From Candidatus Methylomirabilales bacterium (GTDB taxonomy: Bacteria > Methylomirabilota > Methylomirabilia > Methylomirabilales > CSP1-5), in assembly GCA_046758505.1 (NCBI GenBank), contig JBHIAH010000003.1:28178-92177 (forward strand): a DNA stretch of 64,000 nt, written 5' to 3'. Positions 1 through 57,825 of this stretch are shown here, piece by piece. Made by a program: the position numbers and the translations under genes. The stretch's first letter is position 1; each line of letters starts with the position of its first letter. The notes beneath the pieces were generated by a model. It made no database searches. It was not told the DNA's origin and saw only the letters and a program-made list of their open reading frames with translations.

Positions 1-249
1 TCCCCCATCGGAGAGCTGCTTGGCCTGGAGGTAATTGGCGGCCTTCCGCTCCCGGTCGCGATCCACCCGACCCAGAAAGTGGCGGAGCATGATGTACTCC
101 GAGGTCAGGGTGCTATCCGCCTCCAGTTCGCCAAGCCAGAACCCCTCGGGATGCTGGAGGCTCAGGAGATACTTTTGCGCCCGCCGAATAGCCCCTTCCA
201 GGATCTCAGCCGTGGGACCGACGTCACCCGTCGAAGATGACAAACGCAT
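1..249 (-). CDS. shc: squalene-hopene cyclase, N-terminal fragment (gene continues past window start)
   Basis: Manual reverse translation from ATG at 249-247 gives MRLSSSTGDVGPTAEILEGAIRRAQKYLLSLQHPEGFWLGELEADSTLTSEYIMLRHFLGRVDRDRERKAANYLQAKQLSDGG. This matches the canonical SHC N-terminus (YL...Q..dG.W, RVDRDR, YL...Q..DG). It is absent from the ORF track because the window edge truncates it. Confidence 0.8.
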   Translation of the reverse strand, partial: MRLSSSTGDVGPTAEILEGAIRRAQKYLLSLQHPEGFWLGELEADSTLTSEYIMLRHFLGRVDRDRERKAANYLQAKQLSDGG

Positions 250-288
250 CTCCCTTCCCCGCCGATCGTTGGGGCGGGACCGAATCGA

Positions 289-975
289 TCAGTTGATGAA
301 GAACGAGACCCCGATCATCAACAAGCTGTCGTTAATCCCGTCATTGTCGGAGTGGATCCCGGCGTTCGAGATATGATGGAACCGCCATTCCCCCGTGAAG
401 GCCGTCCGCTCCGAAACGAAGTAATGAAACCCCACTCCCCCCTGGGGGGTAAAATTGAACCCATCTTGCTGCGACTTGAGGCCAATGTCCAAAAAGATGA
501 TGCCTGCCCCGAACTCCACAAAGGGGATGAAATTGCCCCCGCCCTTGGGCAGAAAATTGTACCGGAACATCGCGGTGATCCCACCGGCAAAGCCATCCTC
601 GGGCTCGAAGTTGACGAGAAACGCCCCTTCCCCGAGTAGCTCAAGGTTTCCCCGGTACCAGGCTTTCCCTCCCATGGGGTCACTGATCCCGATCCCCCAG
701 CGCGGAGCCGCATAGAAAAACCGCACATCCTCCAGTTCGCCATTGTCGGTCCCGCCGAGGGGGAGAGCATGCCCGTATCCTACCGAGAGCCCAATTTCCT
801 GTTTGCCCAGCCTGAACAAATCCGCCGGGGATCCCTGGGCTGCCTTCTCCGGCTTCTCGGGAGACTCGGAGCCGGCGCCGGCTGCCCATCCCTCCTTCGG
901 AAGGAGAAGCATCATCACAACCGTCACGGACAGCACCACCCTGTACGGCTGTCTCCTGGGAGCCCCCTTTCTCAC
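289..975 (-). CDS. PagL-like lipid A 3-O-deacylase / acyloxyacyl hydrolase outer-membrane protein
   Basis: 228-aa ORF with an N-terminal signal-like hydrophobic stretch and beta-barrel-like alternating sequence. The C-terminal motif RFHHISNAG matches the His/Ser active-site signature of the PagL family. GTG start at 975. Confidence 0.65.
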   Translation of the reverse strand: MRKGAPRRQPYRVVLSVTVVMMLLLPKEGWAAGAGSESPEKPEKAAQGSPADLFRLGKQEIGLSVGYGHALPLGGTDNGELEDVRFFYAAPRWGIGISDPMGGKAWYRGNLELLGEGAFLVNFEPEDGFAGGITAMFRYNFLPKGGGNFIPFVEFGAGIIFLDIGLKSQQDGFNFTPQGGVGFHYFVSERTAFTGEWRFHHISNAGIHSDNDGINDSLLMIGVSFFIN

Positions 976-994
976 CCTGACCTCGCAGACCCGC

Positions 995-1630
995 TCATTC
1001 TTCGGCCCGCTTGACGCGCATTTTCTTGACCAGCTCGTCGAACGAGGAGGTCCGGATGATCCTGTTGAACTGTGACTGATAATTGGTGACGATGCTCACC
1101 CCGTCGATCACGACATCGAACAGCTCCCATTGCCCGGTGCGGCGCTGCAGTCGATAATCGACCGGCAGGCGATCCCCCCGCTTGTCCACGAGGACCGTCT
1201 GCACGAGGGCCTTGGTCCCATCCACCGATTGTCCTTTATAGATGATCCGCTGCTTCGGCAGTGAATCCAGGACCATTCGGCTGTAGGAGCGCTCGAAGAG
1301 CTCCCCGAACAGGGCCACGAAGTCTTGCCGCTGCTTTCCCGTCAACGTGGCCCAATGGGCATTCAGGGATCGCTCCGCCATCTCCGCATAGTTGAACCGG
1401 GCGGCGATCAGCTTTCGAATCTCCCGTTTCCGCCTCCCTTCCAACTCCGGCCCCTGCAGGGCGGGATCCTTCAGGACGTGCAGGGCCCTCTCCAGGATGT
1501 CCCGGACCCGATCGAGGGGCGCACCTTCGGCTGCCCTGACCGAGACGGGCAAGAGCAGTCCCGGCAAAAGGATTCCGAGCCACAAGATGCGGCATACCCG
1601 AAAGCCGTGCCGCCGCTTGGATCTTCTCAT
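995..1630 (-). CDS. MlaC/Ttg2D-family periplasmic lipid-binding protein (HpnM-like), paralog 1
   Basis: 211 aa with a signal peptide. The toluene-tolerance Ttg2D/MlaC-like core is present (FNYAEMAERSLNAHW, DVVIDGVSIVTNYQSQFNRII). The start codon overlaps the hpnN stop (ATGA at 1627-1630). Confidence 0.8.
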   Translation of the reverse strand: MRRSKRRHGFRVCRILWLGILLPGLLLPVSVRAAEGAPLDRVRDILERALHVLKDPALQGPELEGRRKREIRKLIAARFNYAEMAERSLNAHWATLTGKQRQDFVALFGELFERSYSRMVLDSLPKQRIIYKGQSVDGTKALVQTVLVDKRGDRLPVDYRLQRRTGQWELFDVVIDGVSIVTNYQSQFNRIIRTSSFDELVKKMRVKRAEE

Positions 1631-4401
1631 CTCAAAGGCCTCCGCTCTAGTGGCCGCTCGTGGTCCCTCTCCCCGTGCGGCAGTTGCCAGGACCCTTGGG
1701 CGTATCGACCCGCGTGCGGAGCCTCCCCCACCGGTTCCACCTTCCTCGCACCGTAGAGGACCCAGAGGAAGGCCGGGAGAACCGTCAGTGAGGCCAGGAG
1801 GATGCTCCCCACCCCGACGGACAAGAGGAAGCCAAGACTAAAGATTCCTCGGTGGCTGGCGACCATCAGGCTGCCAAACCCCACCATGGTGGTGGACGCA
1901 GAGAGAAAGACCGCCCGGCCCGTGCTATTGGCGATGATGGAGCCCTTGCCTTCCTCCTGCAGACACCGCTTCACGATGTGCAGACCATTCATGATCCCGT
2001 ACCCGGCAATGAGGGGGAGCAGAATGAGGTTGGCCAAATTAAAGTTGATCTTAAACAGTTCCATCAATCCGAGGGTCCAGGCCCCCCCGACCACAAGGGG
2101 GAGCACCGCCAGGAGCAGATGCCCCAGGCTGCCGAAGGACCAGAGGATCACCACAACCATTGCAGCCGCCGCGTACAGCCCGCCGAGCAGATACCCCCTC
2201 TCCATATTGTGGCCGTCTTCCCAGGCGGTCACCGGGTCCCCGATGATATCCGGATCCACCGAATGGACATCCCGCACAAACCTTTGGACGCCCTCGCGGC
2301 CCCAGCTATTCCCCTGCGGAAACACCTTGAGGAGATAGGTCCCCTTCGTGCCGACGAACCGATCCCTGAGCTGTCGCGGCAAGTCCGCCACCGTCATGGG
2401 CCTCGCCTTCAGATTTTTCCGGAGCACGGTGATTTTCTTCTCGAAGTCGGCAAAGAGGCCGGCCTGGATCGTACCCAGCGATCGTCTCCACTGCGCGGCA
2501 TCGCCTTTTTTCAACCGGGCCTTGATGGCGTCCAGGAGCCGCCGCGCCTCCTCCAGCTCCCTATCTGACGCCGAGCTGAAACGCTCCTTATCCCCCAGCT
2601 TGAATCGCATGCGCCCAAGGGTCGCCTGAAGCGCCTTGACGTCCACCGGTTCCAGCCGCCCGAAACGGGGAGCAAGCCCATGCAGGGGGGCACGAAGTGC
2701 CCGAATGATACGTAGCTTGCTGGCTGCATTCTTCGGCAGGAAGGAGAAGACGGTCTGGACGCGATCGACCGACGGGAGCGCTTCCAGGCTGGCCTTTTTG
2801 GTCTGGACTTCCTTCGCCGACCGGGCCAGTCCGATCCCGTACCAGGTCGATGTCCCACCGTCGGCAAGGAGCCGGCGCTCCCACTGTACCGATTCCGTCC
2901 CCTGCGCCTGAAGCTCCAGGAGGTTGAACTCGATCCGAATCTTGCCGAGGGCGGGAAGAGCGGCCACGGCCAGCACGCCCGCCCCGGCGATCATGATTCG
3001 GGGATGATGACTCCACCGTTCCAAGACCCCGAGGAACGACGCCGGCCGGGAGCCAAACCGCGCCCCCTCCGTCTGCTCGCTCACGACCAGCAGCGCCGGA
3101 AGCACGGTAAGGGTTGCCCCAAGGCAGAGGAGCAGGCCACTCCCTGTGATAAAGCCGAGCTCCACGAGACCCTTAAAATTGGTGAGCAGCAGACTGTAGA
3201 AGGCGACCACCGTGGTGATCGCGCCCGTCACGATCGTCACCGCCCGGTGAAAGGTATTCTCGAGCGCGTCAGCGGCATCCCGACCGGCTGCCCGCTCTTC
3301 CTCGTACCGCTCCAACAGATGGATGTTGTAATCAATGCCCAATCCGATGAGGATCGGGATAAACATGGCGCTCAGGATATTGAGGGACCCGACGGTGAGC
3401 GTGATGAACCCCAGGGTCCAGGCAACTCCCATAGCCAGGCTGATGAGGGCCCGGAGCGGGGTGAGGAGGCTTCTCCAGAACAGGAGAAACAGAATGCTCA
3501 CCCCCACGAGCGACAGGATGGTGGCCCTCGTCGCATCCCGTTTCGCGGTCACGATTTCGTCTGATGCCAGGGCATCCGACCCCGTGACCCCCGCTTCGAT
3601 GCCCGGGTAGACTTGACGCAGCTCAGCGATCGCCGTGCGGATCCGCCGGATCGACTCCCGCTTCGGCACCAGGGTGCGCCCGCCTGTACCACGGGCCCTG
3701 GCCAGGAGGAGGAGGTACCTCTTATCCTCGGTGAGGAGATACCCTCCGGAAACCGGCTCCTTCCCGGCACCCAACCACTCTGCCCAGGGGGAAGCAGTGG
3801 TGTGGAGGCCCCTCAATCCGTCATTGACCTGCCGGAGCAGGGCGTTCAGGAAGGTAAGATCCACCTGCCCCGATTTCGCCTTTTCCTCCTCCAAGAAGCC
3901 GGTGAAGAGATGCCCCACCACCGCCTGCCCCATCTCCCGGTTGATTCCGGTAAAGAGGGTGTTGAGCCCTGGCGCGGCGGTGAGTTCCTGGATCAGCACC
4001 CGGTGGTCCTCAATCTTCTGGCGCAATGTCTGGAGCTCGTCCCGGGACAGGTACTGGAGGCCATGCGCTTCGAAGGGGGCATCGTCAACCCGATAGAACA
4101 GCTCCGTGATATGGTCCGGGTCCTTCTGGAGGCGGGTGGCCAGGGCCGAGACGAACTGCTTGGCCCGGCCGAGATCAGAGGCATCTACCACCACCACGAT
4201 ACTGTCTCGGTCCGGGAACTCCCGCTTGTAGGCCTGTTTGAGTGTGAGGAGACGTTTCCCGGTAAAGATCAGCTCCGATCGACTGGGGTGAATCTCTAGC
4301 CACTGCATCGCCGCCAGCAGAGAAGCGAATGCGAGCAGACTCGTCAGCAACAAGACGACCCGGGGATGCCGAAGGATCATACGAGACCACTGCTGGGCCA
4401 T
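1627..4401 (-). CDS. hpnN: hopanoid-associated RND/MMPL transporter HpnN
   Basis: 924 aa with two MMPL-type 6-TM bundles, each preceded by a large periplasmic loop. It sits inside a hopanoid gene cluster flanked by HpnM-like genes. Confidence 0.8.
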   Translation of the reverse strand: MAQQWSRMILRHPRVVLLLTSLLAFASLLAAMQWLEIHPSRSELIFTGKRLLTLKQAYKREFPDRDSIVVVVDASDLGRAKQFVSALATRLQKDPDHITELFYRVDDAPFEAHGLQYLSRDELQTLRQKIEDHRVLIQELTAAPGLNTLFTGINREMGQAVVGHLFTGFLEEEKAKSGQVDLTFLNALLRQVNDGLRGLHTTASPWAEWLGAGKEPVSGGYLLTEDKRYLLLLARARGTGGRTLVPKRESIRRIRTAIAELRQVYPGIEAGVTGSDALASDEIVTAKRDATRATILSLVGVSILFLLFWRSLLTPLRALISLAMGVAWTLGFITLTVGSLNILSAMFIPILIGLGIDYNIHLLERYEEERAAGRDAADALENTFHRAVTIVTGAITTVVAFYSLLLTNFKGLVELGFITGSGLLLCLGATLTVLPALLVVSEQTEGARFGSRPASFLGVLERWSHHPRIMIAGAGVLAVAALPALGKIRIEFNLLELQAQGTESVQWERRLLADGGTSTWYGIGLARSAKEVQTKKASLEALPSVDRVQTVFSFLPKNAASKLRIIRALRAPLHGLAPRFGRLEPVDVKALQATLGRMRFKLGDKERFSSASDRELEEARRLLDAIKARLKKGDAAQWRRSLGTIQAGLFADFEKKITVLRKNLKARPMTVADLPRQLRDRFVGTKGTYLLKVFPQGNSWGREGVQRFVRDVHSVDPDIIGDPVTAWEDGHNMERGYLLGGLYAAAAMVVVILWSFGSLGHLLLAVLPLVVGGAWTLGLMELFKINFNLANLILLPLIAGYGIMNGLHIVKRCLQEEGKGSIIANSTGRAVFLSASTTMVGFGSLMVASHRGIFSLGFLLSVGVGSILLASLTVLPAFLWVLYGARKVEPVGEAPHAGRYAQGSWQLPHGERDHERPLERRPLR

Positions 4402-4431
4402 GACCGGTTTTGCCCCTCCTGCGGATCCCGA

Positions 4432-5070
4432 TTATCGCTTGCGGGTGGGAACAGTGCTCAGCGCTTCGGCTTCCTGCTTGACCCGCATCTTTCGGAGAAG
4501 GTTAGCATACGAGGAGGTCTGGATGATGCGGTTGAACTGGGTTCGGTAGTTACTCACCAGGCTGACGCCTTCGACCACCACATCGTAGACCTTCCACTGG
4601 CCGGTGCGGCGGATGACTTTGTAATCAATGGGGATATCAATATGCTCCTTCTCGCTGACGATCTTGGTCCGGACGACCCCATACCTTTTATCCGCCTGCT
4701 CCTTGGTATAGAGGATTTCTTGATCCGTGTACGATTCGAGCTTCTTGTGATACGACCGCTCCAAGAGATCGGCAAAAAGGTCCACGAACTCTTTTCGCTC
4801 CTTGGGTGTCCGCTTGCGCCAATGTATGCCGAGGGAGCGCCTCGCCATTTCCGCGAAGTCGAACCGGGTAAAGATGACGGCTCTCAGCTGCGTCCGCCGC
4901 ACCTCCTCCTTCTCGGGGGCCTTCAGTGCCGGGTCCCTCAAGATATCCAGGACCCGGTTAATCGTGGCCTTCACCTGGGCCGTCGGCCCCTCCTGGGCAA
5001 AGGACAAGGTCGAAAAAACCAGGATACCGATCCCGGTAAGGATCAGGGTCTGCCGTGTCACCCTACGCAT
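4432..5070 (-). CDS. MlaC/Ttg2D-family periplasmic lipid-binding protein (HpnM-like), paralog 2
   Basis: 212 aa with a signal peptide. It is clearly paralogous to 995-1630 (FDFAEMARRSLGIHW, DVVVEGVSLVSNYRTQFNRII). A good RBS (AGGGGAGACG) precedes the ATG at 5070. Confidence 0.8.
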   Translation of the reverse strand: MRRVTRQTLILTGIGILVFSTLSFAQEGPTAQVKATINRVLDILRDPALKAPEKEEVRRTQLRAVIFTRFDFAEMARRSLGIHWRKRTPKERKEFVDLFADLLERSYHKKLESYTDQEILYTKEQADKRYGVVRTKIVSEKEHIDIPIDYKVIRRTGQWKVYDVVVEGVSLVSNYRTQFNRIIQTSSYANLLRKMRVKQEAEALSTVPTRKR

Positions 5071-5118
5071 CGTCTCCCCTCCTGAATGGTCTCAAGCCGG
5101 TCCGCCTCCCCGTTCACC

Positions 5119-6522
5119 CTACCGTACCGAGAACCCCCGCACAGCCTCCCCCGTCGCAAAGGCCAGGTTGGCCAGCGCAATCCGTTGATTGTAGATGGCG
5201 CGAAAATTATCCGTCCGCATCTCGGCATAGGTCTTCAGCGCGTCGGCGAGCTCCCTGGCCTCCCCAATCCCCAGGTCGAAGTTCGCCACGGCCGTCACCA
5301 GCCACCGGCGGGCCTCGCGATAGCCCCGTTTGGTTGTCTCCATGTCCTTCTGGGCTTTTTGCAACTCCAGGTGGGCCTTCCGCACTTGGAGGGGGATCCC
5401 GTGATCGGCAAAATCTCGCTTGTGGAGCAGCTTGGTATATTCCGCCTCGGCCTCGTGGATCTTTCCTTTCGTGATCCCGAAGTCGAAGTGCCACTTCAGG
5501 CCGAGGACGACCCCCCCCTGGGCGTGTTGGAGTGGATCGGTGATGATCGGGACCTCACTGAAGTCCCGGTTGGTGCTCTGAGCCACATCGGCTAAGAACG
5601 CCGCATAAAAGACGGGATACTGGTCCGCGGCGGCGGCGTCGACGAGGGCCTTTCGAGCCTTGATCCCCTCCCGCAGCTGCACGAACTCGGGGCGGTGCTC
5701 CTTGGCCGTTTCGATATAGCTCTCGACGCCCCTGGCTTCTGCCTTGACCGGCACCAGGGTCTTGTCCGCCAATTCGAACTCGACCCTTTCATCAAGCTGG
5801 AGGACCATGCGCAGCGCACCCTTGGCGAGCGTGAGCCCCTCCTCGGCCTCGTCAATGCCCTTGTCCACCTGTGCCCGGAAGGCCCGCAGCTTGTACACGT
5901 CGACCCAGGTGGCCGCGGGGGAGCCGGCCTTCACTTGGCGTTCGGCCTTGTCCAGGGCCTTCTGAAGCTCATCCCGGATCCCATCGACGAACTCCCGAAT
6001 TTCGTGGGCCAGCAGGTACCCGTAGTAGAACTGCTTGACCTGGAGGGCCACCTCGGAGGCCTTCTGATCGACGGCCGCCTCGCTCACGTCGATGCCGCGC
6101 GCTGCCGCCTCGCGGAAGGCGCTGATCTTCCCGAACGTGTACAGGGGCTGGATCAGGGTGATCACGGCCCGGCCGAAGGCGCCGTTGATCACCGGGTCCG
6201 AGGTCTTCGAATTGGACTTGATGGTCCCGTCGCTCCCCCCGGACCTCGCGAGATCCGACTCGGGCGAGGGGCCTCCGAAGATGTTCGCCTCGAGCTGCGC
6301 CCACTTGGCCGCCTCCGCCTGTTGCTGTTTGCTCCGGCTCATATCCACGCCAGCCCGGGCCTCCTTGACTTGGGGGCTCACCTCGAGCGCCCGCTTCACG
6401 GCCTCGTCCAGGCTGATGACCAGCTTCTTCGGTTCACCCGGCGGCTGCCCCTGCGCAGCCGCCGAAAGGGGCGCCAGCACGATCAAGATAAGAGAGATGC
6501 CGGATGCGACAATTGCGGCCAT
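5119..6522 (-). CDS. TolC-like outer-membrane efflux protein
   Basis: 467 aa with a signal peptide (ends LSAAAQG). The body is two repeated long coiled-coil/beta segments typical of the OEP/TolC family. Confidence 0.75.
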   Translation of the reverse strand: MAAIVASGISLILIVLAPLSAAAQGQPPGEPKKLVISLDEAVKRALEVSPQVKEARAGVDMSRSKQQQAEAAKWAQLEANIFGGPSPESDLARSGGSDGTIKSNSKTSDPVINGAFGRAVITLIQPLYTFGKISAFREAAARGIDVSEAAVDQKASEVALQVKQFYYGYLLAHEIREFVDGIRDELQKALDKAERQVKAGSPAATWVDVYKLRAFRAQVDKGIDEAEEGLTLAKGALRMVLQLDERVEFELADKTLVPVKAEARGVESYIETAKEHRPEFVQLREGIKARKALVDAAAADQYPVFYAAFLADVAQSTNRDFSEVPIITDPLQHAQGGVVLGLKWHFDFGITKGKIHEAEAEYTKLLHKRDFADHGIPLQVRKAHLELQKAQKDMETTKRGYREARRWLVTAVANFDLGIGEARELADALKTYAEMRTDNFRAIYNQRIALANLAFATGEAVRGFSVR

Positions 6523-6559
6523 GGCACGCCTCCTCTATGCTATGACGGTTCCTCAGCCC

Positions 6560-7009
6560 TCAGAATTTGCCAAAAATAAAACTGCCGATCAGCTCCTCGA
6601 TATCAATGGGCGGTTCGGTTTCGTGGATTGTGCCTCCGGGGGGGATGAGCTCATCGGACCCCCCGGGACTCAACCGCACATACTTCTCGCCGATGAGTCC
6701 CTTCGTCTTGATAGAGGCGATCGTGTCCTCCTGCAGCTCGACGCCATTGTCGATCCGCAGCGTGACCCGTGCCTGGTAATCGACCAACGCGATGTCCTCG
6801 ACCCGACCGATCTGCACCCCGGCGATCTCCACGGCCGTCCCTTCCTTCAATCCCCCCACGGTGGGGAAGTCGGCGGTCACCGTGTATCCCGAGAGTCCAA
6901 AGACCTGCATCTTGCCCAACCGCACAGAGATATAGGTGAGGGCGAAAATGCCCAGGAGCAGGAACAGACCCACCACCACTTCGAGATCCACCCGTCTCAT
7001 CGTGCGCAC
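6560..7009 (-). CDS. mlaD: MlaD (single MCE-domain) lipid transport protein
   Basis: 149 aa with one N-terminal TM helix followed by an MCE domain (GLKEGTAVEIAGVQIGRVEDI). The ATG at 7000, preceded by GAGGGTG, is an alternative and perhaps better start. Confidence 0.85.
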   Translation of the reverse strand: MRTMRRVDLEVVVGLFLLLGIFALTYISVRLGKMQVFGLSGYTVTADFPTVGGLKEGTAVEIAGVQIGRVEDIALVDYQARVTLRIDNGVELQEDTIASIKTKGLIGEKYVRLSPGGSDELIPPGGTIHETEPPIDIEELIGSFIFGKF

Positions 7010-7011
7010 CC

Positions 7012-7758
7012 TCAGTCCGGCTGGATCGGGCCCTCCGGATCGCCGGTGATGAACTGTCGGACCACGGGAGTGGCGGAAGACTGGATCGCCTCCGGCGGTC
7101 CCACCTCGACCACCACCCCATGGTGGAGCATCGCCACCTGGTCGGCAATGCCAAAGATCTCGGGGATCTCGTGGCTCACCAGGATGGCCGTAAACCCGAT
7201 GCGCCGATGCAGGTCGAGGATCAGCCGGTGAATTGCATTGACCATAATCGGATCGAGGCCGGTTGTCGGTTCGTCAAAGAGCACAATCTCGGGTTCCATG
7301 GTCAGGGCGCGGGCCAGCGCAACCCGTTTCTTCATCCCCCCGCTCACCTCGGCGGGATACTTAGGGCCCATGTCCGCAAGCCCCACCTGCTTCAACAAGG
7401 TTAAGGTCTTCTCCCGGATGGCCTCGTCGGGCAGCCGGGTTTTCTCCCGAAGGGGGAAGGCGACGTTCTCGTGAACGGTCAACGAATCGAAGAGCGCCCC
7501 CCCCTGAAAGACCACGCCGAATCGCTCCCTGAGCCGGTCGAGGGCCCGCCCGCGGATGTGCGTGATCTCCACGCCACCGATAAGAATCTGGCCTGCATCC
7601 GGTTTGAGGAGACCCATCAGATGCTTGAGGAGGACGCTCTTGCCACCGCCACTCCTGCCGATGATGACCAGGATCTCCCCCTGACCGACCTGCAGGTTTA
7701 CTCCCCGAAGAACCTGCTGCCCCCCGAAGGACTTATGCACATTGCGGATCTCGACCAT
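7012..7758 (-). CDS. mlaF: MlaF ABC transporter ATP-binding protein
   Basis: 248 aa with Walker A GRSGGGKS, ABC signature VSGGMKKRVALARAL and Walker B IVLFDEPTTGLD. Confidence 0.9.
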   Translation of the reverse strand: MVEIRNVHKSFGGQQVLRGVNLQVGQGEILVIIGRSGGGKSVLLKHLMGLLKPDAGQILIGGVEITHIRGRALDRLRERFGVVFQGGALFDSLTVHENVAFPLREKTRLPDEAIREKTLTLLKQVGLADMGPKYPAEVSGGMKKRVALARALTMEPEIVLFDEPTTGLDPIMVNAIHRLILDLHRRIGFTAILVSHEIPEIFGIADQVAMLHHGVVVEVGPPEAIQSSATPVVRQFITGDPEGPIQPD

Positions 7759-7770
7759 GGGCCCCCAGGC

Positions 7771-8544
7771 CTATATCACCAACAGCACCGAGCCGAGGAA
7801 GTAATCCCAGACCAGGATCAACACCGAGGAGAGAACCACCGCCTCCGTGGTGGCCCGGCTCACTCCCTCTGCTCCGTAGCTGGTATAAAATCCCTTGTAG
7901 CACGAGACCCACGTCACCAGGAGTCCAAAGCTCACCGATTTGAGGATCCCCTGGGTCACATCCCGAAGGCTCACGTAGGTCTCCATCTGCCCGAAATAGG
8001 TCCCCTCCCCGACGCCCAAGAGCTTCACGCCTACGAGATACCCTCCGTAAATCCCCACCAGATCGAAAATCGCGGTGAGGAGGGGAAACGTGATCAGGCC
8101 GGCCAAGATGGTCGGGACGATCAAGTATCGCATGGGGTTGAGTGCCATCACGGTGAGCGCATCGATCTGTTCGCTGATGCGCATGATCCCGATTTCAGCC
8201 GTCAAAGCCGAGCCAGCCCGCCCCGTGACCATCAGGGCGGAGAGGACCGGTCCTAACTCGCGGATGAGGCTTAGGGCTACCGCCGAGCCCAGGAAGGCCT
8301 CCGAGCCGAACTTCCTCAACGTATAGAACACTTGCAGGCCCAGGACCATTCCGGTAAAAGCCCCGGTGAGCACGATCACCGAGAGGGATTTGGCCCCGAT
8401 GAAGTGGATCCGGGCGACCATGCGCCGCCACTTCAGGGGAGGGACAAAGGCCCAGAAAATGGCGGAGCTCAGAAAGATCACCATTCGTCCGCCGTCCCGG
8501 AGGAATTGCAGGAACCACTGTCCGAGGAGTTCCAGGACCCTCAT
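7771..8544 (-). CDS. mlaE: MlaE ABC transporter permease
   Basis: 257-aa polytopic membrane protein with MlaE/YrbE-type motifs (LGPVLSALMVTGRAGSALTAEIGIMRISEQIDAL). Confidence 0.9.
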   Translation of the reverse strand: MRVLELLGQWFLQFLRDGGRMVIFLSSAIFWAFVPPLKWRRMVARIHFIGAKSLSVIVLTGAFTGMVLGLQVFYTLRKFGSEAFLGSAVALSLIRELGPVLSALMVTGRAGSALTAEIGIMRISEQIDALTVMALNPMRYLIVPTILAGLITFPLLTAIFDLVGIYGGYLVGVKLLGVGEGTYFGQMETYVSLRDVTQGILKSVSFGLLVTWVSCYKGFYTSYGAEGVSRATTEAVVLSSVLILVWDYFLGSVLLVI

Positions 8545-8917
8545 GGCCCTCCTTCACAGAGCATGGAGATTCCGTCGCGCAACGTACCGTAGCGCCAGGC
8601 CAAGACCCCTGATTTTACTCCCCGAGAAATATGGTGGCAAGCATGAAAAACTCCCCCCCACAGCAGGCCAAAGATCACGCCCGTTTTGAAGTCTACTGTA
8701 TAAAGTATAAAAACGACCAAATGTCAAGAATATCCGGGCCTTTCTCGAAGACGCCCCGCCGACCCCTGGCGCTTCGGACCACCCCCCTCCCAGGACAGAT
8801 CCAGGGGGACGGGCCAGACGCGGCCCCTCGTGCCGGGCGATTTTTTTGGTTGCAAAATTGGCGCATCCGCCTTAGGCTGAATGCTCACGTGCGAACCACG
8901 ATCTCGCGAGGAAGTCG

Positions 8918-9838
8918 ATGGATTCGGTCTTCTCGCTGTTGCTCGGGACCCTTGTGCTGCGGCCGTACGTCTTCGCCTTCCTGTTCCTCTATCTCTTCGC
9001 GGCCGTGGCCGACATGGGATGGCGGCGGACCCTCCTCTTCACCCTGGTGGGGTGGGGTGTCGCGTTTACCGCCGAATCCCTCTCCATCCGGGTGGGGATT
9101 CCCTTCGGTCTCTATCATTATCTGCCCACTACCGCCCATCGAGAGCTCTGGATCGCCGGGGTCCCCTTCATGGATTCTCTCTCTTTTATCTTCCTGGCCT
9201 ATGCAAGCTGGAGCCTCGCCTCCCTGGCGCTGCTCCCCCCGTGTAAGGATGGGGAGCGACGGTGGGCCTTCTCGGTCCCGTACCGAGGCCGATTTCGTCC
9301 TCCCGTTCTCCTGCTCACCGTCCTCTTCTTTGTCCTCATCGACATCGTGGTAGACCCCATCGCCGTCCGGGGGGACCGCTGGTTTCTCGGCCAGATCTTT
9401 TACTACCCCGAGCCCGGTGCCTACTTTGGGGTCCCGGTCTCCAATTTCATCGGCTGGGGGGTGGTGGGGAGCACAATCATGGCCCTCTTTACGCTCCTCG
9501 AGCGACGGATCGATCGCGGCCCGCCGGCCTGGGCGGTAGAGCTTCCCCTGCGCCCCCTGTATGGACCGGCGCTCTACTACCTCGTCCTGGCGTTTTCCCT
9601 CACCGTCACCTGGCTGATCGGGGAGCAGACACTGCTCCTCGTCGGGCTCTTCATCTACGGCCCCCTCACCACCCTCCTGGCGGTGACGATCGCCGCCCGG
9701 TGGCGGGAGGGACAGCAGGCGGCCATAGGGAATCTCAAGCCACGGCAAGGCGTTCTCTCCTCAGGGAACATCCCCTCGAACGGCCGGGGATCGCTCCCCG
9801 TGGAGGTCATGTGGAAGGAGGACCAGCACCTCGAATAG
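8918..9838 (+). CDS. carotenoid-biosynthesis-protein-like integral membrane protein (DUF422-type)
   Basis: 306-aa polytopic protein. Motifs GIPFGLYHY, VPFMDSLSF and VDPIAVRGDRW resemble the Caroten_synth/DUF422 family as I recall it. RBS GAGGAAG lies before the ATG. Confidence 0.5.
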   Translation: MDSVFSLLLGTLVLRPYVFAFLFLYLFAAVADMGWRRTLLFTLVGWGVAFTAESLSIRVGIPFGLYHYLPTTAHRELWIAGVPFMDSLSFIFLAYASWSLASLALLPPCKDGERRWAFSVPYRGRFRPPVLLLTVLFFVLIDIVVDPIAVRGDRWFLGQIFYYPEPGAYFGVPVSNFIGWGVVGSTIMALFTLLERRIDRGPPAWAVELPLRPLYGPALYYLVLAFSLTVTWLIGEQTLLLVGLFIYGPLTTLLAVTIAARWREGQQAAIGNLKPRQGVLSSGNIPSNGRGSLPVEVMWKEDQHLE

Positions 9839-9903: not shown

Positions 9904-10926
9904 ATGGCAGTTCCGATATCGCAAGCGTTCACCGTTGCCCGCTACGTCCTCCGTCAAAAGATACGAGGGAATAAGCACTATCCCCTCGTGCTCATGCTCG
10001 AGCCCCTCTTTCGCTGCAACCTGGCCTGTGCCGGGTGCGGCAAGATCCAATACCCCGAGCACGTGCTGGCCCGACGCCTGACGCCGGAAGAGTGCTGGGC
10101 AGCCGCCGAAGAATGCGGGGCACCGATTGTGAGTATTCCCGGCGGAGAGCCTCTCATCCATCCCGAACTGCCCGAGATCGTTCGGGGATTGATCGAGCGG
10201 AAGAAGTACGTGTACCTCTGCACCAATGCCCTGCTCATGGAACGAAAGCTTCCCGAGTACACGCCGTCCAAATATCTCACCTTCAGCGTCCACATGGACG
10301 GCCTCAAGGAAGACCACGACATCGCCGTGTGCCGGGACGGGGTGTACGATATCGCGGTCCGCGCGATCAAGGCCGCCCTGGGGCGCGGCTTCCGCGTGAC
10401 GACCAACACCACCCTCTTCGAAGGCGCGAACCCGCCACGGGTCCGGCAATTCTTCGACTCCATGATGGAGTTAGGCGTCGAGGGGATGACGATCTCGCCG
10501 GGCTATAGCTACCAGAAGGCCCCCGATCAAGAGCACTTCCTGCGGCGCCACCGCACCACGCAGCTCTTCGCGGCCATCCTCGGCAATCCGAAGCGGCATT
10601 GGGCCTTTAACCAGTCCCCCCTGTTCCTCGAATTCCTCATGGGGAAGCGAGACTACCAGTGCACGCCCTGGGGAAACCCCACCTACAACATCTTCGGCTG
10701 GCAGCGCCCCTGCTACCTGTTGCAGGACGGCTATGCACCGACCTTCAAGGAACTGATAGAAACCACCCACTGGGACCGGTACGGGACCGGCAGAAACGAC
10801 AAGTGCGCCGACTGCATGGTGCACTGCGGCTACGAGGCCAGCGCGGTGGATGATACGTTCAGTTCATGGGCAGCGTTCGCCCGGACGGTCCAATTGACCC
10901 TTCGGCCGAATTCATCAAAGGGATGA
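9904..10926 (+). CDS. hpnH: adenosylhopane synthase HpnH (radical SAM)
   Basis: 340 aa with the radical-SAM cluster CNLACAGC. It matches remembered HpnH sequences closely along the whole length (YPLVLMLEPLFRCNLACAGCGKI, GWQRPCYL, KCADCMVHCGYE). Confidence 0.9.
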   Translation: MAVPISQAFTVARYVLRQKIRGNKHYPLVLMLEPLFRCNLACAGCGKIQYPEHVLARRLTPEECWAAAEECGAPIVSIPGGEPLIHPELPEIVRGLIERKKYVYLCTNALLMERKLPEYTPSKYLTFSVHMDGLKEDHDIAVCRDGVYDIAVRAIKAALGRGFRVTTNTTLFEGANPPRVRQFFDSMMELGVEGMTISPGYSYQKAPDQEHFLRRHRTTQLFAAILGNPKRHWAFNQSPLFLEFLMGKRDYQCTPWGNPTYNIFGWQRPCYLLQDGYAPTFKELIETTHWDRYGTGRNDKCADCMVHCGYEASAVDDTFSSWAAFARTVQLTLRPNSSKG

Positions 10927-10933
10927 ACGATCC

Positions 10934-11326
10934 ATGCCCCAGGAAACAAAGAGGGACGGATCCGAACGGCCGCGGTGGGAGGGGCGCTCTTTCCGCCTCG
11001 AGAATCACGCGGAGCTCTACGAGGTGATCGAGGCGGCCTTCGACTATCGGGGCGACGTGACCCTCGAGCTCCGGGACCGGTCGCGAATCGAAGGGTACGT
11101 CTCCAACCGCAACACGGAAGGGACCGAGCCGTACATCCACCTTTTTCCCAAGGACCAGCCCGGGACCATAACGATACCGTACGCGGATATTATGGCCATC
11201 GAGTTCTCGGGGGAAGACACCGCCTTTGGAAAATCCTGGGACGCCTGGATGACCAAAAGCGAGGCGTTGCGCAATGCCGAAGACGAAAGAGTTCGCGCCG
11301 AGGCCCAGGCCCGCGGGGACCTCTAG
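10934..11326 (+). CDS. hypothetical protein, co-oriented with hpnH
   Basis: 130-aa ORF starting 8 nt after the hpnH stop. Its composition looks coding and I recognise no domain. Confidence 0.45.
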   Translation: MPQETKRDGSERPRWEGRSFRLENHAELYEVIEAAFDYRGDVTLELRDRSRIEGYVSNRNTEGTEPYIHLFPKDQPGTITIPYADIMAIEFSGEDTAFGKSWDAWMTKSEALRNAEDERVRAEAQARGDL

Positions 11327-11628
11327 GGCCGCACTCCCTACTGCGCGATGACCGGTGACCGCTATCCGATGACCGTAAGGAACCACGGCGTCCTTTTTCG
11401 GTCGTCGGTTCAGACTCACTACCGGGAGGGCAGGTCCCCCTGCGGCGCTCGGCGGTGGCCTCGCCGGGCACGCCCCTGGTTGTATCGTGTGAATCTGGGG
11501 AGAGGTGAGTTGGAGGGGCCCGAGGAACGACGCCACCCCGGTCTGGAATTCCTCGCTCGAGCGTCCTAAGTGATGTACGGGGTTTCGGGGAGGCCACCGG
11601 GGGCCTTGATCGCTCGGAACACGGTGAG

Positions 11629-12378
11629 GTGAGGATTTCTCGATTGGCTCCCGGCCCGGCGGCCATCGTGGTGGCCCTCTCTCGGGAGGCCGCCCCCATA
11701 GCCAGGCATCTGGGTCTCCGCAGGCACGGGGTGCAGAGGGGCGTGACGCAGTACCGCGGTGGGGACGAGCGCATCCACCTCCTGCAAGTGGGGATGGGCC
11801 CCCGCGGAGCTGCCCGGGCCCTTGGTTGCCTGGAAGAGAAACAGCCCGCCCTGCTTCTGTCGGCAGGCTTCTGTGGAGGGGTTGGGACCGAGGTGAGCCT
11901 GGGGGACATGCTTGTCGCGTCCCAGGTGGTCCGACATACCGGGTCCTTTCCCGCCGACCCCCTTCTTCTCAAGACCGCAAGCCGCGTGCTCAAGACGATC
12001 GGGCTTTCCTTCCATGTGGGCACCATCCTCACGGTCGATGAGGTCGTCGCCCCAGGTGAAGGGATGCGCGAAATGGGGGACCTGCAAATCCAGGCCGTGG
12101 ACATGGAGAGTGCGTATCTGGCCGAAGGGGCGAGGCAACAGGGGATCCCCTTCCTGGCAATGAGAGTCGTCTCGGATACCCCGGCCGAGCCCTGGGCGGC
12201 CGAAGGGAAGCTCTTCGTGGAACCGGACGGCCGCCTCAAGCCGGTGTCGCTCGCGGCCTCCCTCCTCCGCCATCCCGTGTGGATCCCCCAGTTGCTCCGT
12301 GTCGGGTCCACGCTCCGACGGGCCACGCGTCGGCTCGCCCGGGGGATCGAAGCCCTCCTGAAGGAGCTGAACGCGTGA
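11629..12378 (+). CDS. hpnG: hopanoid-associated phosphorylase/nucleosidase HpnG
   Basis: 249 aa of PNP/UDP phosphorylase family type (LLSAGFCGGV, VDMESAYLAEGA). GTG start with RBS GGTGAGG. Hopanoid cluster context. Confidence 0.7.
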   Translation: MRISRLAPGPAAIVVALSREAAPIARHLGLRRHGVQRGVTQYRGGDERIHLLQVGMGPRGAARALGCLEEKQPALLLSAGFCGGVGTEVSLGDMLVASQVVRHTGSFPADPLLLKTASRVLKTIGLSFHVGTILTVDEVVAPGEGMREMGDLQIQAVDMESAYLAEGARQQGIPFLAMRVVSDTPAEPWAAEGKLFVEPDGRLKPVSLAASLLRHPVWIPQLLRVGSTLRRATRRLARGIEALLKELNA

Positions 12379-12649
12379 GGGCGCTCGTTCTCCGGCCCCG
12401 CGAAGAAGACCCTCCTTCAGGACCTCACCGAGGCCGCCGGATTCCAGGGGGTGGAACGGACAACCAGCAGGGAGGAGCCCCCGGCGGTTGGGTCGTGACT
12501 CCCCGGGGGGACGGGGTCCGCCTTTCCGCTGACTTGAACCGGGACGGGGGATCGGGACGAGAAGGTTCCCCGGGCTTCACGCTCCCCCCGAGGCCATCAC
12601 CCTGCGCCTCCGGCGGGCGGCAGTGAGAATTGACTGAGGAGAGGGAGTC

Positions 12650-13645
12650 GTGAAGAGGCCCTGGGGCAAGATAGCAGCGCTCTGTCTCGGCCTCTTCCTC
12701 TTCCTGTGGATCCTCGGACGGGTCGGACTCGCTGAGACGCTCGCTCTGATCCGTCAGGTCGGCTGGAGTTTTCCGCCCCTCCTCCTCCCGTCCGTGTTGA
12801 TGTGGGCCCTTTTTTCCCTGGGCTGGTGGTGGACCCTCCCCTCGGGGGTGCCCTTCCCTCACCTCCTCCTGATCCGAGCGGCGGGTGAGGCGGTCAACAC
12901 CATTACGCCCCTGGCGTACGTGGGGGGTGAACCGCTCAAGGCCTCGCTGCTCTGCCGCCTCGGCATTCCCCTCACCGACGGTCTCGCCTCGGTTGTGGTC
13001 ACGAAAACCATCGCCGCCTCGGCGTATTGTCTCTTTATCTTCGCGGGGCTCGCCACTGCCCTCATCGGCACCAGGAATTCCACGTCCGCCCTCGTGGGGG
13101 GGGCCGGCGCGGGACTCTTCCTCGCCATTGCGGTCGTCGTTCTGTACTACAGCCAGCGGCGGGGGCTCTTTTCGCTCCTCCACCGCCTGGTCTATCGGCT
13201 CGGCGTCAGGGGCGAGGCCTGGATGGCCAAACGCGAAGTGCTCGAGAGCCTGGACGCCAAGATCGTGACCCTCTACCAAAGCCGGAAGCGCCTCTCGGGC
13301 TGCCTGGTTTTTTCTCTGCTTGGCTGGTTCGTGAGCCCCATCGAGACCTACTTCTTTCTCTGGGCCCTGGGAACGCCCGTGGACCTCATTACCGTGATCG
13401 TAATCCAGGCGCTGGTGCTCGGCGTCAAGGCCGCCAGCTTCTTCATTCCGGGCAGCCTGGGGGCCCAGGAGGGGGGAAACGTTTTGATCTTCGTCGGCCT
13501 CGGCATGGGCGCGGACATCGCCATGGCCTACAGTCTGTTGCGCAGGGCCCGGGAGGTCGCCTGGATCCTCCTCGGCGCCGTGGTCCTCACACGATTCGGG
13601 TGGGGGGAACTCAAGGCGCTGCCCGAGACGGAGCCAGGATCATGA
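12650..13645 (+). CDS. HpnL-like membrane protein (lysylphosphatidylglycerol-synthase TM-region family)
   Basis: 331-aa polytopic protein with the conserved GGEPLKA motif and a C-terminal GSLGAQEGG motif typical of the LPG_synthase_TM/HpnL family. GTG start with RBS GGAGAGGGAG. Confidence 0.6.
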   Translation: MKRPWGKIAALCLGLFLFLWILGRVGLAETLALIRQVGWSFPPLLLPSVLMWALFSLGWWWTLPSGVPFPHLLLIRAAGEAVNTITPLAYVGGEPLKASLLCRLGIPLTDGLASVVVTKTIAASAYCLFIFAGLATALIGTRNSTSALVGGAGAGLFLAIAVVVLYYSQRRGLFSLLHRLVYRLGVRGEAWMAKREVLESLDAKIVTLYQSRKRLSGCLVFSLLGWFVSPIETYFFLWALGTPVDLITVIVIQALVLGVKAASFFIPGSLGAQEGGNVLIFVGLGMGADIAMAYSLLRRAREVAWILLGAVVLTRFGWGELKALPETEPGS

Positions 13646-14643
13646 AGGCGCTGGTGACCGGAGCGACCGGCTTCGTCGGGGCAAACCTCATCCGGGAGCT
13701 TCTCAAAGACGGCACAGCCGTGCGAGCCCTGGTGCGCGCCGGAAGTCCACGCACCACCCTCGAGGGGCTCGACATCGAAACGGTCAATGGAGACCTCCAG
13801 GACCGGGACAGCCTGCGGGATGCACTCAAGGGGTGCCGGGTTCTGTACCACGTGGCCGCCCGCTACAGCCTTGCCTCAAGGGATGCGGCCGAGATGTACC
13901 GGGCCAATGTGGAGGGGACCCGAAACATCCTGGAGGTTGCGTTGGAGCTCGGCGTCGAGCGGGCCGTCTATACCAGCACGGTGGGGGCCCTGGGGATCCC
14001 CAAGGATCACCGCCCCGGAACCGAGGAGACTCCGGTGACCCTAGCAGAGATGGTCGGCTCCTACAAGCGGTCCAAGTTCCTGGCCGAGCGGGAGGCGGAG
14101 CGGATCGGAGGCCTGGGGCTGCCGGTGGTCATCGTCAATCCCTCCACGCCGGTGGGGCCCTGGGATGTCAAGCCGACCCCGACCGGCCGGATGATCGTGG
14201 ATTACCTCAAGGGGCGGATGTTCGGGTACATCCATACCGGTCTCAATCTGGTCCACGTCCGGGATGTGGCGCGGGGCCACATCCTGGCAGCCCGGAAAGG
14301 GCGGGTCGGGGAAAAGTATATCCTGGGAAACCAGAATCTCACGCTGCGCGAGATCTTTAGGATGCTCGAGCAGATCTCCGGAGTCCCCGCCCCGCGCTTC
14401 AGGATCCCCTATCCGGTTGCCCTCGTGGCCGCGGGCGCCTCCGAGGGGTACGCCCGGTTGCGCCGGCAGGAACCGCAGATCCCATGGACTGGGGTCCGCA
14501 TGGCGCGCAAGATGATGTTCTTTAACCCTGCGAAGGCCGTCCGCGAACTGCAGTTCCCCCAGACGCCGGTCGCCGAGGCGCTCCGAGAGGCCGTCGACTG
14601 GTACTGGGCCCGCGGATACGCTCCCCGCCCGAAGGGGGCCTAG
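13642..14643 (+). CDS. hpnA: hopanoid-associated NAD-dependent sugar epimerase/dehydratase HpnA
   Basis: The true start is the internal ATG at 13642 (MKALVTGATGFVGANL is a Rossmann GxxGxxG), overlapping the stop of the upstream gene (ATGA). The 205-codon N-terminal extension in the ORF track overlaps the hpnL-like gene and is spurious. Confidence 0.8.
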   Translation: MKALVTGATGFVGANLIRELLKDGTAVRALVRAGSPRTTLEGLDIETVNGDLQDRDSLRDALKGCRVLYHVAARYSLASRDAAEMYRANVEGTRNILEVALELGVERAVYTSTVGALGIPKDHRPGTEETPVTLAEMVGSYKRSKFLAEREAERIGGLGLPVVIVNPSTPVGPWDVKPTPTGRMIVDYLKGRMFGYIHTGLNLVHVRDVARGHILAARKGRVGEKYILGNQNLTLREIFRMLEQISGVPAPRFRIPYPVALVAAGASEGYARLRRQEPQIPWTGVRMARKMMFFNPAKAVRELQFPQTPVAEALREAVDWYWARGYAPRPKGA

Positions 14644-14722
14644 CCTTGCAAGAACAAGAAGAGGCTTGGTAGAGTGCCAAAGGCCGCCTATAATCCAAGC
14701 GATCAACCATGAGGGGGGAGAC

Positions 14723-15613
14723 GTGGACCTGAAGGCGTATCTCGAAGAGCGACGGGCCGTGGTAGAGGCCGGCCTGAAGCGCTACATCCCGGGGGAGGAA
14801 ACGATGCCCCCCGAGCTTCACCGGGCCATGCACTACAGCTTGTTCGCCGGGGGGAAGCGCCTGCGGCCGACCCTGACGATCGCCGCCGCGGAGGCGGTCG
14901 GCGGGGTCGCCGAAGCGGTGCTGCCCGTCGCGTGCGCCTTCGAATACATCCACACCTACTCCCTGGTTCACGACGACCTCCCGGCCATGGATGATGACGA
15001 TCTGCGGCGGGGTCGCCCCACCTGTCACAAGGTCTTTGGCGAGGCCATGGCCATCCTGGCAGGCGATGCCCTCCTCACGGAGGCCTTTGTGCTCCTCGCG
15101 AATCCCGCGCACGTCGGCCACCTCGATCCGAGGCTCCTCCGGACGGTGATCCACGAGATCGCCCATGCCGCCGGGTCGCAGGGCATGGTGGGGGGACAGG
15201 CGGTGGACATCCTCTCCGAGGGGAAGGCCGTCGAGCTGTCCCTCCTGCATTACATCCATACCCACAAGACCGGGGCCCTGATCCTGTGTGCCCTGCGGGC
15301 GGGAGCCCACCTAGGCGGTGCCACCGCGGAAGCACTCGACGCCGTCACGCGATACGGGAAGGCGGCCGGACTCGCCTTTCAGATCGCCGACGACATCCTG
15401 GACATCGAAGGCGAAGAGGCGCTGCGGGGAAAGAAGGTGGGCGGCGATGCGAGCCGCGGCAAGGCCACCTATCCGGCGCTGGTGGGACTTGCGGAGGCCA
15501 AACGGGAAGCGCAGCGGCTCGTCCGCGAGGCACTGGACGCCATCGCCTCGTTCGATCACCACGCCGATCCCCTCCGGGAGATTGCCCGCTTTATCATCTC
15601 GCGAAAGGCGTAA
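14723..15613 (+). CDS. polyprenyl diphosphate synthase (FPP/GGPP synthase family)
   Basis: Both Asp-rich motifs are present (LVHDDLPAMDDDDLRRG and FQIADDILD). I prefer the GTG at 14723, preceded by GAGGGGGGA; the ORF-track TTG at 14666 is an alternative. Confidence 0.85.
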   Translation: MDLKAYLEERRAVVEAGLKRYIPGEETMPPELHRAMHYSLFAGGKRLRPTLTIAAAEAVGGVAEAVLPVACAFEYIHTYSLVHDDLPAMDDDDLRRGRPTCHKVFGEAMAILAGDALLTEAFVLLANPAHVGHLDPRLLRTVIHEIAHAAGSQGMVGGQAVDILSEGKAVELSLLHYIHTHKTGALILCALRAGAHLGGATAEALDAVTRYGKAAGLAFQIADDILDIEGEEALRGKKVGGDASRGKATYPALVGLAEAKREAQRLVREALDAIASFDHHADPLREIARFIISRKA

Positions 15614-15616
15614 GGC

Positions 15617-16483: not shown

Positions 16484-16547
16484 GGTTCAAAACCTAAAAA
16501 TGGCGGCCGGCTTCTTACCATGAACTACGAACTATGAACCCTGAACC
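16443..16547. repeat. inverted pair of GGTTCA/TGAACC-word repeat modules (mosaic intergenic repeat family, module A)
   Basis: GGTTCACGGTTCAGGGTTCAGGGTTCAGGG at 16443-16472 faces TGAACTACGAACTATGAACCCTGAACCG at 16521-16548. CGGTTCAGGGTTCA has a perfect reverse complement, TGAACCCTGAACCG. Confidence 0.8.
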
Positions 16548-19692: not shown

Positions 19693-19711
19693 ACATCCCC
19701 CCGTGATATGG

Positions 19712-57816: not shown

Positions 57817-57825
57817 CCCTTCACC

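Follow-up and report, generated by a model that had tools for sequence, protein, structure and literature searches.

A hopanoid-linked operon of Methylomirabilales joins a widespread Mla-type cassette to an hpnN-mlaC unit of apparently separate ancestry

Why would one operon carry two lipid-transport engines, each beside an MlaC-like carrier, together with the hopanoid gene shc? In a 64,000-nt stretch of a Candidatus Methylomirabilales bacterium (GenBank assembly GCA_046758505.1, contig JBHIAH010000003.1, positions 28,178 to 92,177; the whole stretch is called the window below), nine minus-strand genes run from an Mla-type ABC transporter set through the RND gene hpnN to shc, and two of them encode MlaC-like proteins. 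Mla systems elsewhere move membrane glycerophospholipids between the two membranes. A first-pass annotation, made from the letters of the window, had seen in this locus an entire trans-envelope route for hopanoids. We favor a different answer, at about even confidence: a composite envelope-lipid operon whose three parts, an Mla cassette, an hpnN-mlaC1-pagL-like unit and shc, have separate histories and are co-regulated. In the order of the operon, preceded by a candidate promoter, the features are the following.

8612-8640, minus strand: promoter-like site TTGCCA-17-TAAAAT upstream of mlaE, a consensus match only
7771-8544, minus strand: mlaE, permease, first gene of the operon (PF02405, TIGR00056)
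7012-7758, minus strand: mlaF-like ABC ATPase (best NCBIfam model MlaF PRK11831; PF00005)
6560-7009, minus strand: mlaD, short type (TIGR04430, PF02470)
5119-6522, minus strand: OEP/TolC-like outer-membrane factor, fourth gene of the cassette (PF02321, twice)
4432-5070, minus strand: MlaC2 (MlaC-like 2), predicted periplasmic MlaC-fold carrier (PF05494)
1627-4401, minus strand: hpnN-like HAE3/MMPL-type RND transporter (TIGR03480 best)
995-1630, minus strand: MlaC1 (MlaC-like 1), HpnM-like MlaC-fold carrier (PF05494, TIGR03481)
289-975, minus strand: PagL-like outer-membrane beta-barrel, acyloxyacyl hydrolase type (PF09411)
1-249, minus strand: shc, first 83 codons only, the gene leaving the window (TIGR01507, PF13249)

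All nine open reading frames (ORFs) were confirmed at the positions and in the order first given for them, co-directional and spanning 1-8544. The intergenic spacing from mlaE to shc is 12, 2, 37, 48, 30, -4, 19 and 39 nt, matching the gaps of 0-48 nt reported earlier. The negative value is an ATGA overlap of hpnN and the MlaC1 gene, read directly in the sequence, through which MlaC1 is translationally coupled to hpnN. No terminator-like hairpin lies within any intergenic gap of the nine genes. The layout is operon-like with shc included, as had been proposed. The promoter-like site sits in the 373-bp region between the operon and the divergent genes; sites of this kind numbered two where 1.7 would be expected. 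Signal peptides lacking a lipobox cysteine were predicted from the N-termini of MlaC1, MlaC2, the OEP protein and the PagL-like protein.

The first five genes make up an Mla-type set. MlaE matched PF02405 with 268 bits and passed the cut-off of TIGR00056 (265.6 versus 212.2), and MlaD, a protein of 149 aa with an N-terminal membrane anchor and a single MCE domain, aligned over its full length to TIGR04430 (150.9 versus a cut-off of 135) and also matched PF02470. The MlaF-like protein matched PF00005 and reached 212 bits against PRK11831, whose equivalog cut-off is 441; in every related locus its gene is flanked by mlaE and mlaD, a position that supports the MlaF assignment. The OEP protein matched PF02321 on two stretches (118 bits). 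MlaC2 matched PF05494 with 172 bits, counts 2QGU and 5UWA among its PDB relatives and scored 94.7 bits with the HpnM model TIGR03481, under the cut-off of 160.1. An MlaB gene is missing from the operon, since the gaps of 0-48 nt are too small for one, and no STAS match was found among the scanned window proteins, which did not include all small ORFs. MlaA was likewise found neither in the operon nor among the scanned window proteins, in agreement with the first-pass annotation. A periplasmic adaptor (membrane fusion protein) to partner the TolC-like protein was encoded neither in the operon nor in the related cassettes.

The second part of the operon starts with the RND gene, which stands within a hopanoid biosynthesis cluster, with shc in its own operon and hpnH, hpnG, hpnA and hpnD divergent from it. 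HpnN was the best-scoring family for its product (TIGR03480, 595.7 bits), below the curated cut-off of 751.85, and NF052374 gave 364.6 bits versus a cut-off of 1100. Residues 10-878 align to residues 14-859 of the solved Burkholderia multivorans HpnN (5KHN/6WU0, E ~1e-56). The protein is 100% identical to one from a Candidatus Methylomirabilales (NC10) metagenome-assembled genome. An alternative start, seven codons further into the gene, is the one used by the NCBI model P0001 (917 aa). MlaC1 matched PF05494 with 136 bits, has MlaC relatives in the PDB and scored 83 bits with the HpnM model, again below 160.1. Assignment by profile, suggested earlier as a check, succeeded for the Pfam families and the MlaE and MlaD models, whereas the curated cut-offs of MlaF, HpnN and HpnM were not reached. 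For the shc fragment, the 83 N-terminal residues within the window matched TIGR01507 (73 bits) and PF13249, and orthologous loci (e.g., L001; L numbers denote surveyed loci) have a full SHC of 640 aa with N- and C-terminal domains at the same position.

The PagL-like protein matched PF09411 with 60.6 bits (cut-off 23); its start is uncertain, the NCBI model being 12 codons shorter. Searched as a single sequence against the PDB it gave nothing useful, and a profile was required: one built from nine orthologs matched Pseudomonas aeruginosa PagL (2ERV, E = 3e-7). We take the catalytic triad of 2ERV to be His126, Ser128 and Glu140. The equivalents of the first two, H201 and S203, are invariant in all nine sequences; at the position of the third, this protein has Asn215 and some relatives have Asp. 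Because this glutamate position is occupied by asparagine, activity of the protein is uncertain. Homologs from other lineages (52-56% identity) had no hpnN, mlaC or hopanoid gene nearby in any of the three contexts looked up, and only two loci, L003 and L043, also have PagL-like genes near hpnN. The idea that the barrel is a dedicated receptor for HpnM is weakened by these three unrelated contexts, and the protein is most plausibly a regular outer-membrane enzyme of the PagL family, co-expressed here with its neighbors.

Do the two engines share their carriers? The earlier account had two MlaC paralogs directly flanking hpnN, and this stands: MlaC1 and MlaC2 share 45% identity across 189 aa, they lie on either side of the RND gene and one of them forms the ATGA overlap. 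The further proposal, that an ABC and an RND engine share duplicated carriers, does not agree with their phylogeny. We placed 51 MlaC-like proteins from the loci in a neighbor-joining tree with 300 bootstraps (all our trees are neighbor-joining only, on modest alignments). MlaC2 formed a clade with the MlaC of the Rokubacteria cassettes in 274 of the replicates, and MlaC1 and MlaC2 were sisters in a single one; the idea of a recent tandem duplication serving both engines was rejected on this basis. In 146 of 300, MlaC1 grouped with MlaC proteins encoded next to hpnN in other phyla (L003, L019, L024 and L034). MlaC2 lies 30 nt upstream of hpnN, yet is phylogenetically a member of the ABC cassette. 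The two carriers are thus old lineages, each tied by position to one engine, MlaC1 to hpnN and MlaC2 to the ABC transporter. The engines themselves differ in a similar way: the HpnN of the window is 40-44% identical to that of L003, Nitrospinota and Binatia and only 36-39% identical to that of Rokubacteria, in contrast to MlaE and MlaD, which have their nearest relatives in Rokubacteria. The simplest history suggested by these comparisons would be an ancestral Mla set linked to shc, with Methylomirabilales having acquired or retained a separate hpnN-mlaC1-pagL unit.

The Mla part of the operon is not confined to hopanoid loci. We searched a protein collection with the TolC-like protein and looked up four homologs (42-45% identity) in their genomic context, their hosts being Ca. 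Manganitrophus noduliformans, one Thermodesulfovibrionales metagenome-assembled genome and two others. All four cases, outside the phylum, had the order mlaE-mlaF-mlaD-OEP-mlaC with gaps of 2-12 nt, had housekeeping neighbors (priA, valS, pyrD, Fe-S assembly) and had no hopanoid gene within 7 kb. Just upstream of the unlinked cassette of Ca. Manganitrophus noduliformans (L087, 2095-4678), a small STAS protein, a patatin-like lipase and an OmpA-like beta-barrel are encoded, the first of these being a possible MlaB-like subunit. When metagenomes were scanned with this type of OEP as the anchor, more than 567 relatives were returned, and among the best 80, which were analyzed, mlaD was upstream of the OEP gene in 67/67 loci, mlaE was present in 44/45 and mlaC followed within 1.5 kb downstream in 65/70. 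Genes of the SHC, HpnN, HpnH or CruF type occurred in 3 of the 24 loci with long flanks and were absent from the other 21, absence being scored only inside each locus's flanks.

The proteins of the unlinked Nitrospirota cassettes resemble those of the window about as much as the Rokubacteria proteins do: identities are 67-69% versus 67-71% for MlaE, 52-55% versus 61-63% for MlaD, 43-45% versus 40% for OEP and 50-57% versus 51-55% for MlaC2. With similarity to unlinked cassettes equal to that to linked ones, there is no sign in the sequences of a re-specialization in Methylomirabilota. By gene order and similarity, mlaE-mlaF-mlaD-OEP-mlaC2 is simply the local ortholog of a self-contained cassette of five genes, widespread and frequent both in Nitrospirota and in metagenomes; as this cassette is generic and mostly unlinked, any hopanoid specificity of its ABC half can only be inferred. 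The possibility that the TolC-like protein is the partner of HpnN was rejected here, the gene being fixed within mlaD-OEP-mlaC in unlinked lineages. A sister group of OEP proteins accompanies hpnN and mlaC without MlaEFD in L011, L084, L032 and L039, and an OEP gene and an MlaC gene without MlaEFD were also seen at the hpnN loci L011/L085, L024 and L084. In the literature that we searched, neither an mlaEFD-OEP-mlaC cassette, its TolC-like gene placed between mlaD and mlaC, nor an MlaFED set inside hopanoid clusters was described.

A generic cassette, mostly unlinked elsewhere, is also what one would see if its place beside shc were purely historical, inherited from the Methylomirabilota ancestor with no functional or regulatory coupling, the Mla set being plain housekeeping; inheritance by itself can conserve a linkage within one phylum. 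To survey the linkage, we searched an HpnN alignment against one genome per species and annotated the resulting 80 loci with the window proteins and with profiles built from them, the profiles being used because single-sequence phmmer missed distant family members. The complete order mlaE-mlaF-mlaD-OEP-mlaC2-hpnN-mlaC1-pagL-shc was kept in all eight Methylomirabilales loci that span it (L001, L002, L004-L006 and L008-L010), as were the divergent CruF-like, hpnH and hpnG genes. Around 20 loci of Rokubacteria and other Methylomirabilota have the linkage in rearranged form, shc-mlaE-mlaF-mlaD-(OEP)-mlaC, with hpnH and the CruF-like gene divergent and hpnL-hpnN several kilobases beyond the cassette, the HpnN of these loci being only 35-39% identical to that of the window; the gap from shc to mlaE was estimated at 20-45 nt in nine of these Rokubacteria-type loci. 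A third arrangement, in L123 (1-10076) and L153 (3-9924), has shc divergent, an HpnN-like gene (its product 32% identical to that of the window), about 1.8 kb of other sequence and then mlaE-F-D-OEP-mlaC. In a concatenated tree of 58 complete cassettes the hopanoid-linked ones were not monophyletic, L123 and L153 being nested in an otherwise unlinked clade, so the linkage arose at least twice. The purely historical account is made improbable by these data: the order was reshuffled between Methylomirabilales and Rokubacteria with adjacency and co-orientation of shc kept, the third arrangement is independent and belongs to a different cassette clade, and the genes of the window are separated by gaps of 0-48 nt without terminator-like sites.

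The first-pass annotation had allowed that the Mla genes might be the organism's only housekeeping set, placed here by chance, which absence of the linkage from relatives would have indicated. The neighborhood survey found the linkage in the 8 of 8 Methylomirabilales loci, in the approximately 20 rearranged ones and in L123 and L153; because it is conserved and has re-arisen, it is not due to chance. Relatives also hold multiple Mla-type sets: Ca. M. oxyfera encodes MlaE, MlaD, MlaF and MlaC twice each and MlaA once, M. lanthanidiphila carries MlaEFD in three sets and Rokubacteria in two (PMC10665443, Supplementary Data 1). With several sets and MlaA in relatives, the set of the operon is probably not the sole housekeeping Mla, and the notion of a sole housekeeping system placed by chance is not supported. 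The accessions listed for M. oxyfera are CBE69271 (MlaE), 69270 (MlaF), 69269 (MlaD) and, after one unlisted gene, 69267 (MlaC), and its second MlaC, CBE69679, precedes the second MlaEFD set, 69702-69704, by about 23 genes (PMC10665443, Supplementary Data 1). The run from CBE69271 to 69267 fits the order of the cassette. As the second MlaC is far from MlaEFD, the placement of hpnN-mlaC1 may differ in that genus.

The recurrence of the linkage keeps alive the proposal of a single dedicated trans-envelope hopanoid route, in which MlaFED and HpnN would both extract hopanoids, both MlaC proteins would ferry them and the TolC-like and/or PagL-like protein would receive them. Throughout Methylomirabilota the cassette stands with shc and hpn genes, in one or the other of two arrangements, and in Rokubacteria shc is 20-45 nt upstream of mlaE; the same tie is found independently in L123 and L153. 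Other types of MlaEFD, with long MlaD, occur at the hpnN loci L003 (4425-7137) and L083 (6004-8542) outside the phylum; the L003 MlaD has 380 aa and a weak Pfam match to a helical-needle domain, and these proteins are of the envelope-bridging kind, unlike the short MlaD that is paired with a soluble MlaC. Housekeeping could be covered by the extra MlaEFD sets and MlaA of relatives, and HpnM is the best NCBIfam score of both carriers. Those scores are under the HpnM cut-off, however, the carriers are two old lineages bound each by position to its own engine instead of shared duplicates, 21 of the 24 well-flanked cassettes have no hopanoid gene nearby and the divergence of the cassette proteins from unlinked Nitrospirota cassettes does not exceed that from Rokubacteria ones. 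On balance we regard a single all-hopanoid route, the main rival to our reading, as rather unlikely.

Several points nevertheless weigh against the composite reading that we prefer. Phylum-wide linkage in two arrangements and its recurrence in L123 and L153 are what would be expected if the cassette handles hopanoids, and the additional Mla sets of relatives leave room for a specialization of the set in the operon. Hopanoid synthesis may also occur in the Nitrospirota that carry unlinked cassettes, and a cassette being unlinked does not prove it non-hopanoid. The grouping of MlaC1 with hpnN-adjacent carriers has moderate support (49%), by neighbor-joining only. Lastly, the OEP gene is missing from about 16 of the approximately 20 Rokubacteria cassettes, which weakens the case for OEP as an obligatory outer-membrane terminus.

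A further candidate for the cargo of the cassette comes from its surroundings in Rokubacteria. The interval from mlaC to hpnN (L064, 4692-9931) holds genes for a thiamine pyrophosphate-dependent enzyme, a nucleotidyltransferase, a CDP-alcohol phosphatidyltransferase, an HpnL-like protein and a myo-inositol-1-phosphate synthase, and a nucleotidyltransferase and a CDP-alcohol transferase also flank the Methylomirabilales block (L001, 1-1044). These Rokubacteria genes look like an inositol-phosphate head-group pathway within the hopanoid cluster. The cassette might then carry another locus-specific lipid, for example a polar lipid made by these enzymes, and the HpnL-like gene in the divergent block of the window would fit. 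We consider this very improbable: the cassette occurs without such genes in the four cases looked up outside the phylum. HpnN-like RND proteins may also have other cargo. In Binatia, an MlaC-like gene precedes the HpnN-like genes (L012-L042; L084, 5559-10856), and L084 has an OEP gene and a 103-aa ORF in front as well; no hopanoid biosynthesis gene was found within 8-10 kb, and the cargo of these RND proteins, with MlaC as partner, may be other lipids.

How would the composite operon work? Most likely, the Mla cassette would move bulk membrane lipids (glycerophospholipids) between both membranes, as in its many unlinked copies, with MlaC2 as the shuttle and the TolC-like protein as the probable outer-membrane partner. 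The hpnN-mlaC1-pagL-like unit would be a hopanoid export module: HpnN and MlaC1 probably form a hopanoid exporter, in which HpnN would extract hopanoids from the inner membrane and hand them to its own HpnM-like carrier MlaC1, following the model of Lawrence et al. (preprint 10.1101/2025.07.29.667474) minus HpnS. The PagL-like barrel most likely acts as an enzyme that modifies lipid A in the outer membrane, and not as a receptor. With shc closing the operon, one promoter upstream of mlaE would read all three parts, and co-transcription would couple hopanoid synthesis and outer-membrane delivery to a general balancing of outer-membrane lipids; one possible form of the coupling is the removal of displaced phospholipid during hopanoid insertion. 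What the data show are the identities of the genes, their operon-like arrangement, the conserved linkage, distinct ancestries for the two carriers and a cassette that is generic; cargo, direction of transport, co-regulation and the part played by the TolC-like protein are inferred.

Parts of this scheme resemble known systems. The Escherichia coli Mla system (MlaFEDB-MlaC-MlaA-OmpC/F) likewise has MlaE, an MlaF-type ATPase, a short single-MCE MlaD and a soluble MlaC, and the E/F-D-C order of mlaFEDCB is similar; it differs from the operon, which lacks the STAS protein MlaB, at a locus without MlaA, and has a TolC-family gene between mlaD and mlaC as well as hpnN and shc. The mlaEFD-tolC-tamB operon of Negativicutes (Veillonella parvula; Grasekamp et al. 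2023, PMC10665443) also places a TolC homolog directly after mlaEFD and lacks MlaB and MlaA. Its MlaD is long, with its own beta-barrel, and bridges the envelope without MlaC (PMC10665443), whereas our MlaD has 149 aa, an MlaC gene follows the TolC-like gene and tamB is absent. The HpnN-HpnM-HpnS/HpnT model (10.1101/2025.07.29.667474) shares with our locus an HpnN-type RND protein beside an HpnM-like MlaC-fold carrier in a hopanoid cluster; in place of the MlaA-like HpnS and the lipocalin-like HpnT, our locus has a PagL-like barrel after the carrier, and a complete MlaEFD-OEP-MlaC cassette stands upstream in the same operon. Neither MlaE, MlaD nor Mce is mentioned in the parts of that preprint's text and supplements available to us.

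In the BstABC sterol transport system of Methylococcus capsulatus (PMC11713862), which handles a polycyclic triterpenoid, the inner-membrane transporter is of the MMPL type, is related to HpnN and has partners in the periplasm and the outer membrane; the periplasmic partner is PhnD-like, compared with MlaC-like here, and the NCBIfam BstA model gave the RND protein of the window 291 bits, far under its cut-off of 1400. With the lipid A 3-O-deacylase PagL of P. aeruginosa (2ERV), the barrel protein shares the PagL domain, the profile match and the catalytic His and Ser; unlike in that enzyme, the equivalent of Glu140 is Asn, the N-terminal region is longer and the gene lies between an HpnM-like gene and shc. 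The HpnN-based model of hopanoid trafficking also reportedly draws on work of Doughty (2011) and Kumar (2017). To our knowledge, only HpnN has been tested experimentally in the delivery of hopanoids to the outer membrane, HpnM, HpnS and HpnT being recent predictions.

The hopanoid genes divergent from the operon had been taken to begin with hpnH at 8918. The gene at that position is CruF-like and hpnH follows it, as in this list of the block.

8918-9838, plus strand: CruF-like membrane protein (carotenoid hydratase family, PF04240-type), first gene of the divergent block; TIGR03460 and NF045693 weak
9904-10926, plus strand: hpnH, 546 bits, above cut-off
10934-11326, plus strand: 130-aa ORF between hpnH and hpnG, conserved, also called in L001 (1888-2280)
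11629-12378, plus strand: hpnG-like, below the HpnG cut-off
12650-13645, plus strand: hpnL-like, below the HpnL cut-off
about 13642-14643, plus strand: hpnA, 455 bits, above cut-off
14666-15613, plus strand: FPP synthase, in the divergent hopanoid block 9904-16483
15617-16483, plus strand: hpnD, 333 bits, above cut-off

The L001 ortholog of the CruF-like protein matches PF04240, and the gene adjoins hpnH across Methylomirabilota hopanoid loci (L001, 3424-4320, and around 19 others), divergent from mlaE or shc; the protein might act on a hopanoid or squalene instead of a carotenoid. The 130-aa ORF had no match in Pfam or NCBIfam. Two zinc-type alcohol dehydrogenases (16534-18728, plus strand) and ispH (LytB; 18712-19797, minus strand) end the hopanoid/isoprenoid island, and neither hpnC nor hpnE was seen within the 64-kb window. 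Farther along, the G+C content of positions 24001-28000 is 0.56-0.57, compared with 0.61-0.67 elsewhere in the window, and this stretch may be acquired DNA; a cupin and an alpha/beta hydrolase are encoded in it, and the ORFs 23101-23742 and 24318-24872 have no family match. Other features of the window are these.

30770-32149, minus strand: cytochrome P450
44335-45174, minus strand: IS200-type transposase
50453-52945, plus strand: subtilase, then an exosortase-like fragment
53552-56731, minus strand: AcrB-type RND pump; the neighboring ORF 56776-58185 has no Pfam match

A bolder interpretation, which we rate as quite doubtful, is that the cassette represents an undescribed and widespread Mla architecture, with a TolC-family outer-membrane terminus for the soluble MlaC replacing MlaA, and that it was recruited to hopanoids in Methylomirabilota and, independently, in L123/L153 beside HpnN and HpnM. 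If true, one operon would provide an ATP-driven and a proton-driven route for hopanoids. Were the TolC-like protein the outer-membrane partner of MlaC in bacteria without MlaA, our view of how Mla systems evolved would broaden. NC10 bacteria grow slowly and are kept as enrichments. The locus amounts to a natural experiment on hopanoid delivery: hpnN and shc are fused to a full Mla-type system, in a combination conserved in the phylum and assembled more than once. It makes testable the question of whether two MlaC-fold carriers encoded side by side with one RND gene bind different lipids.

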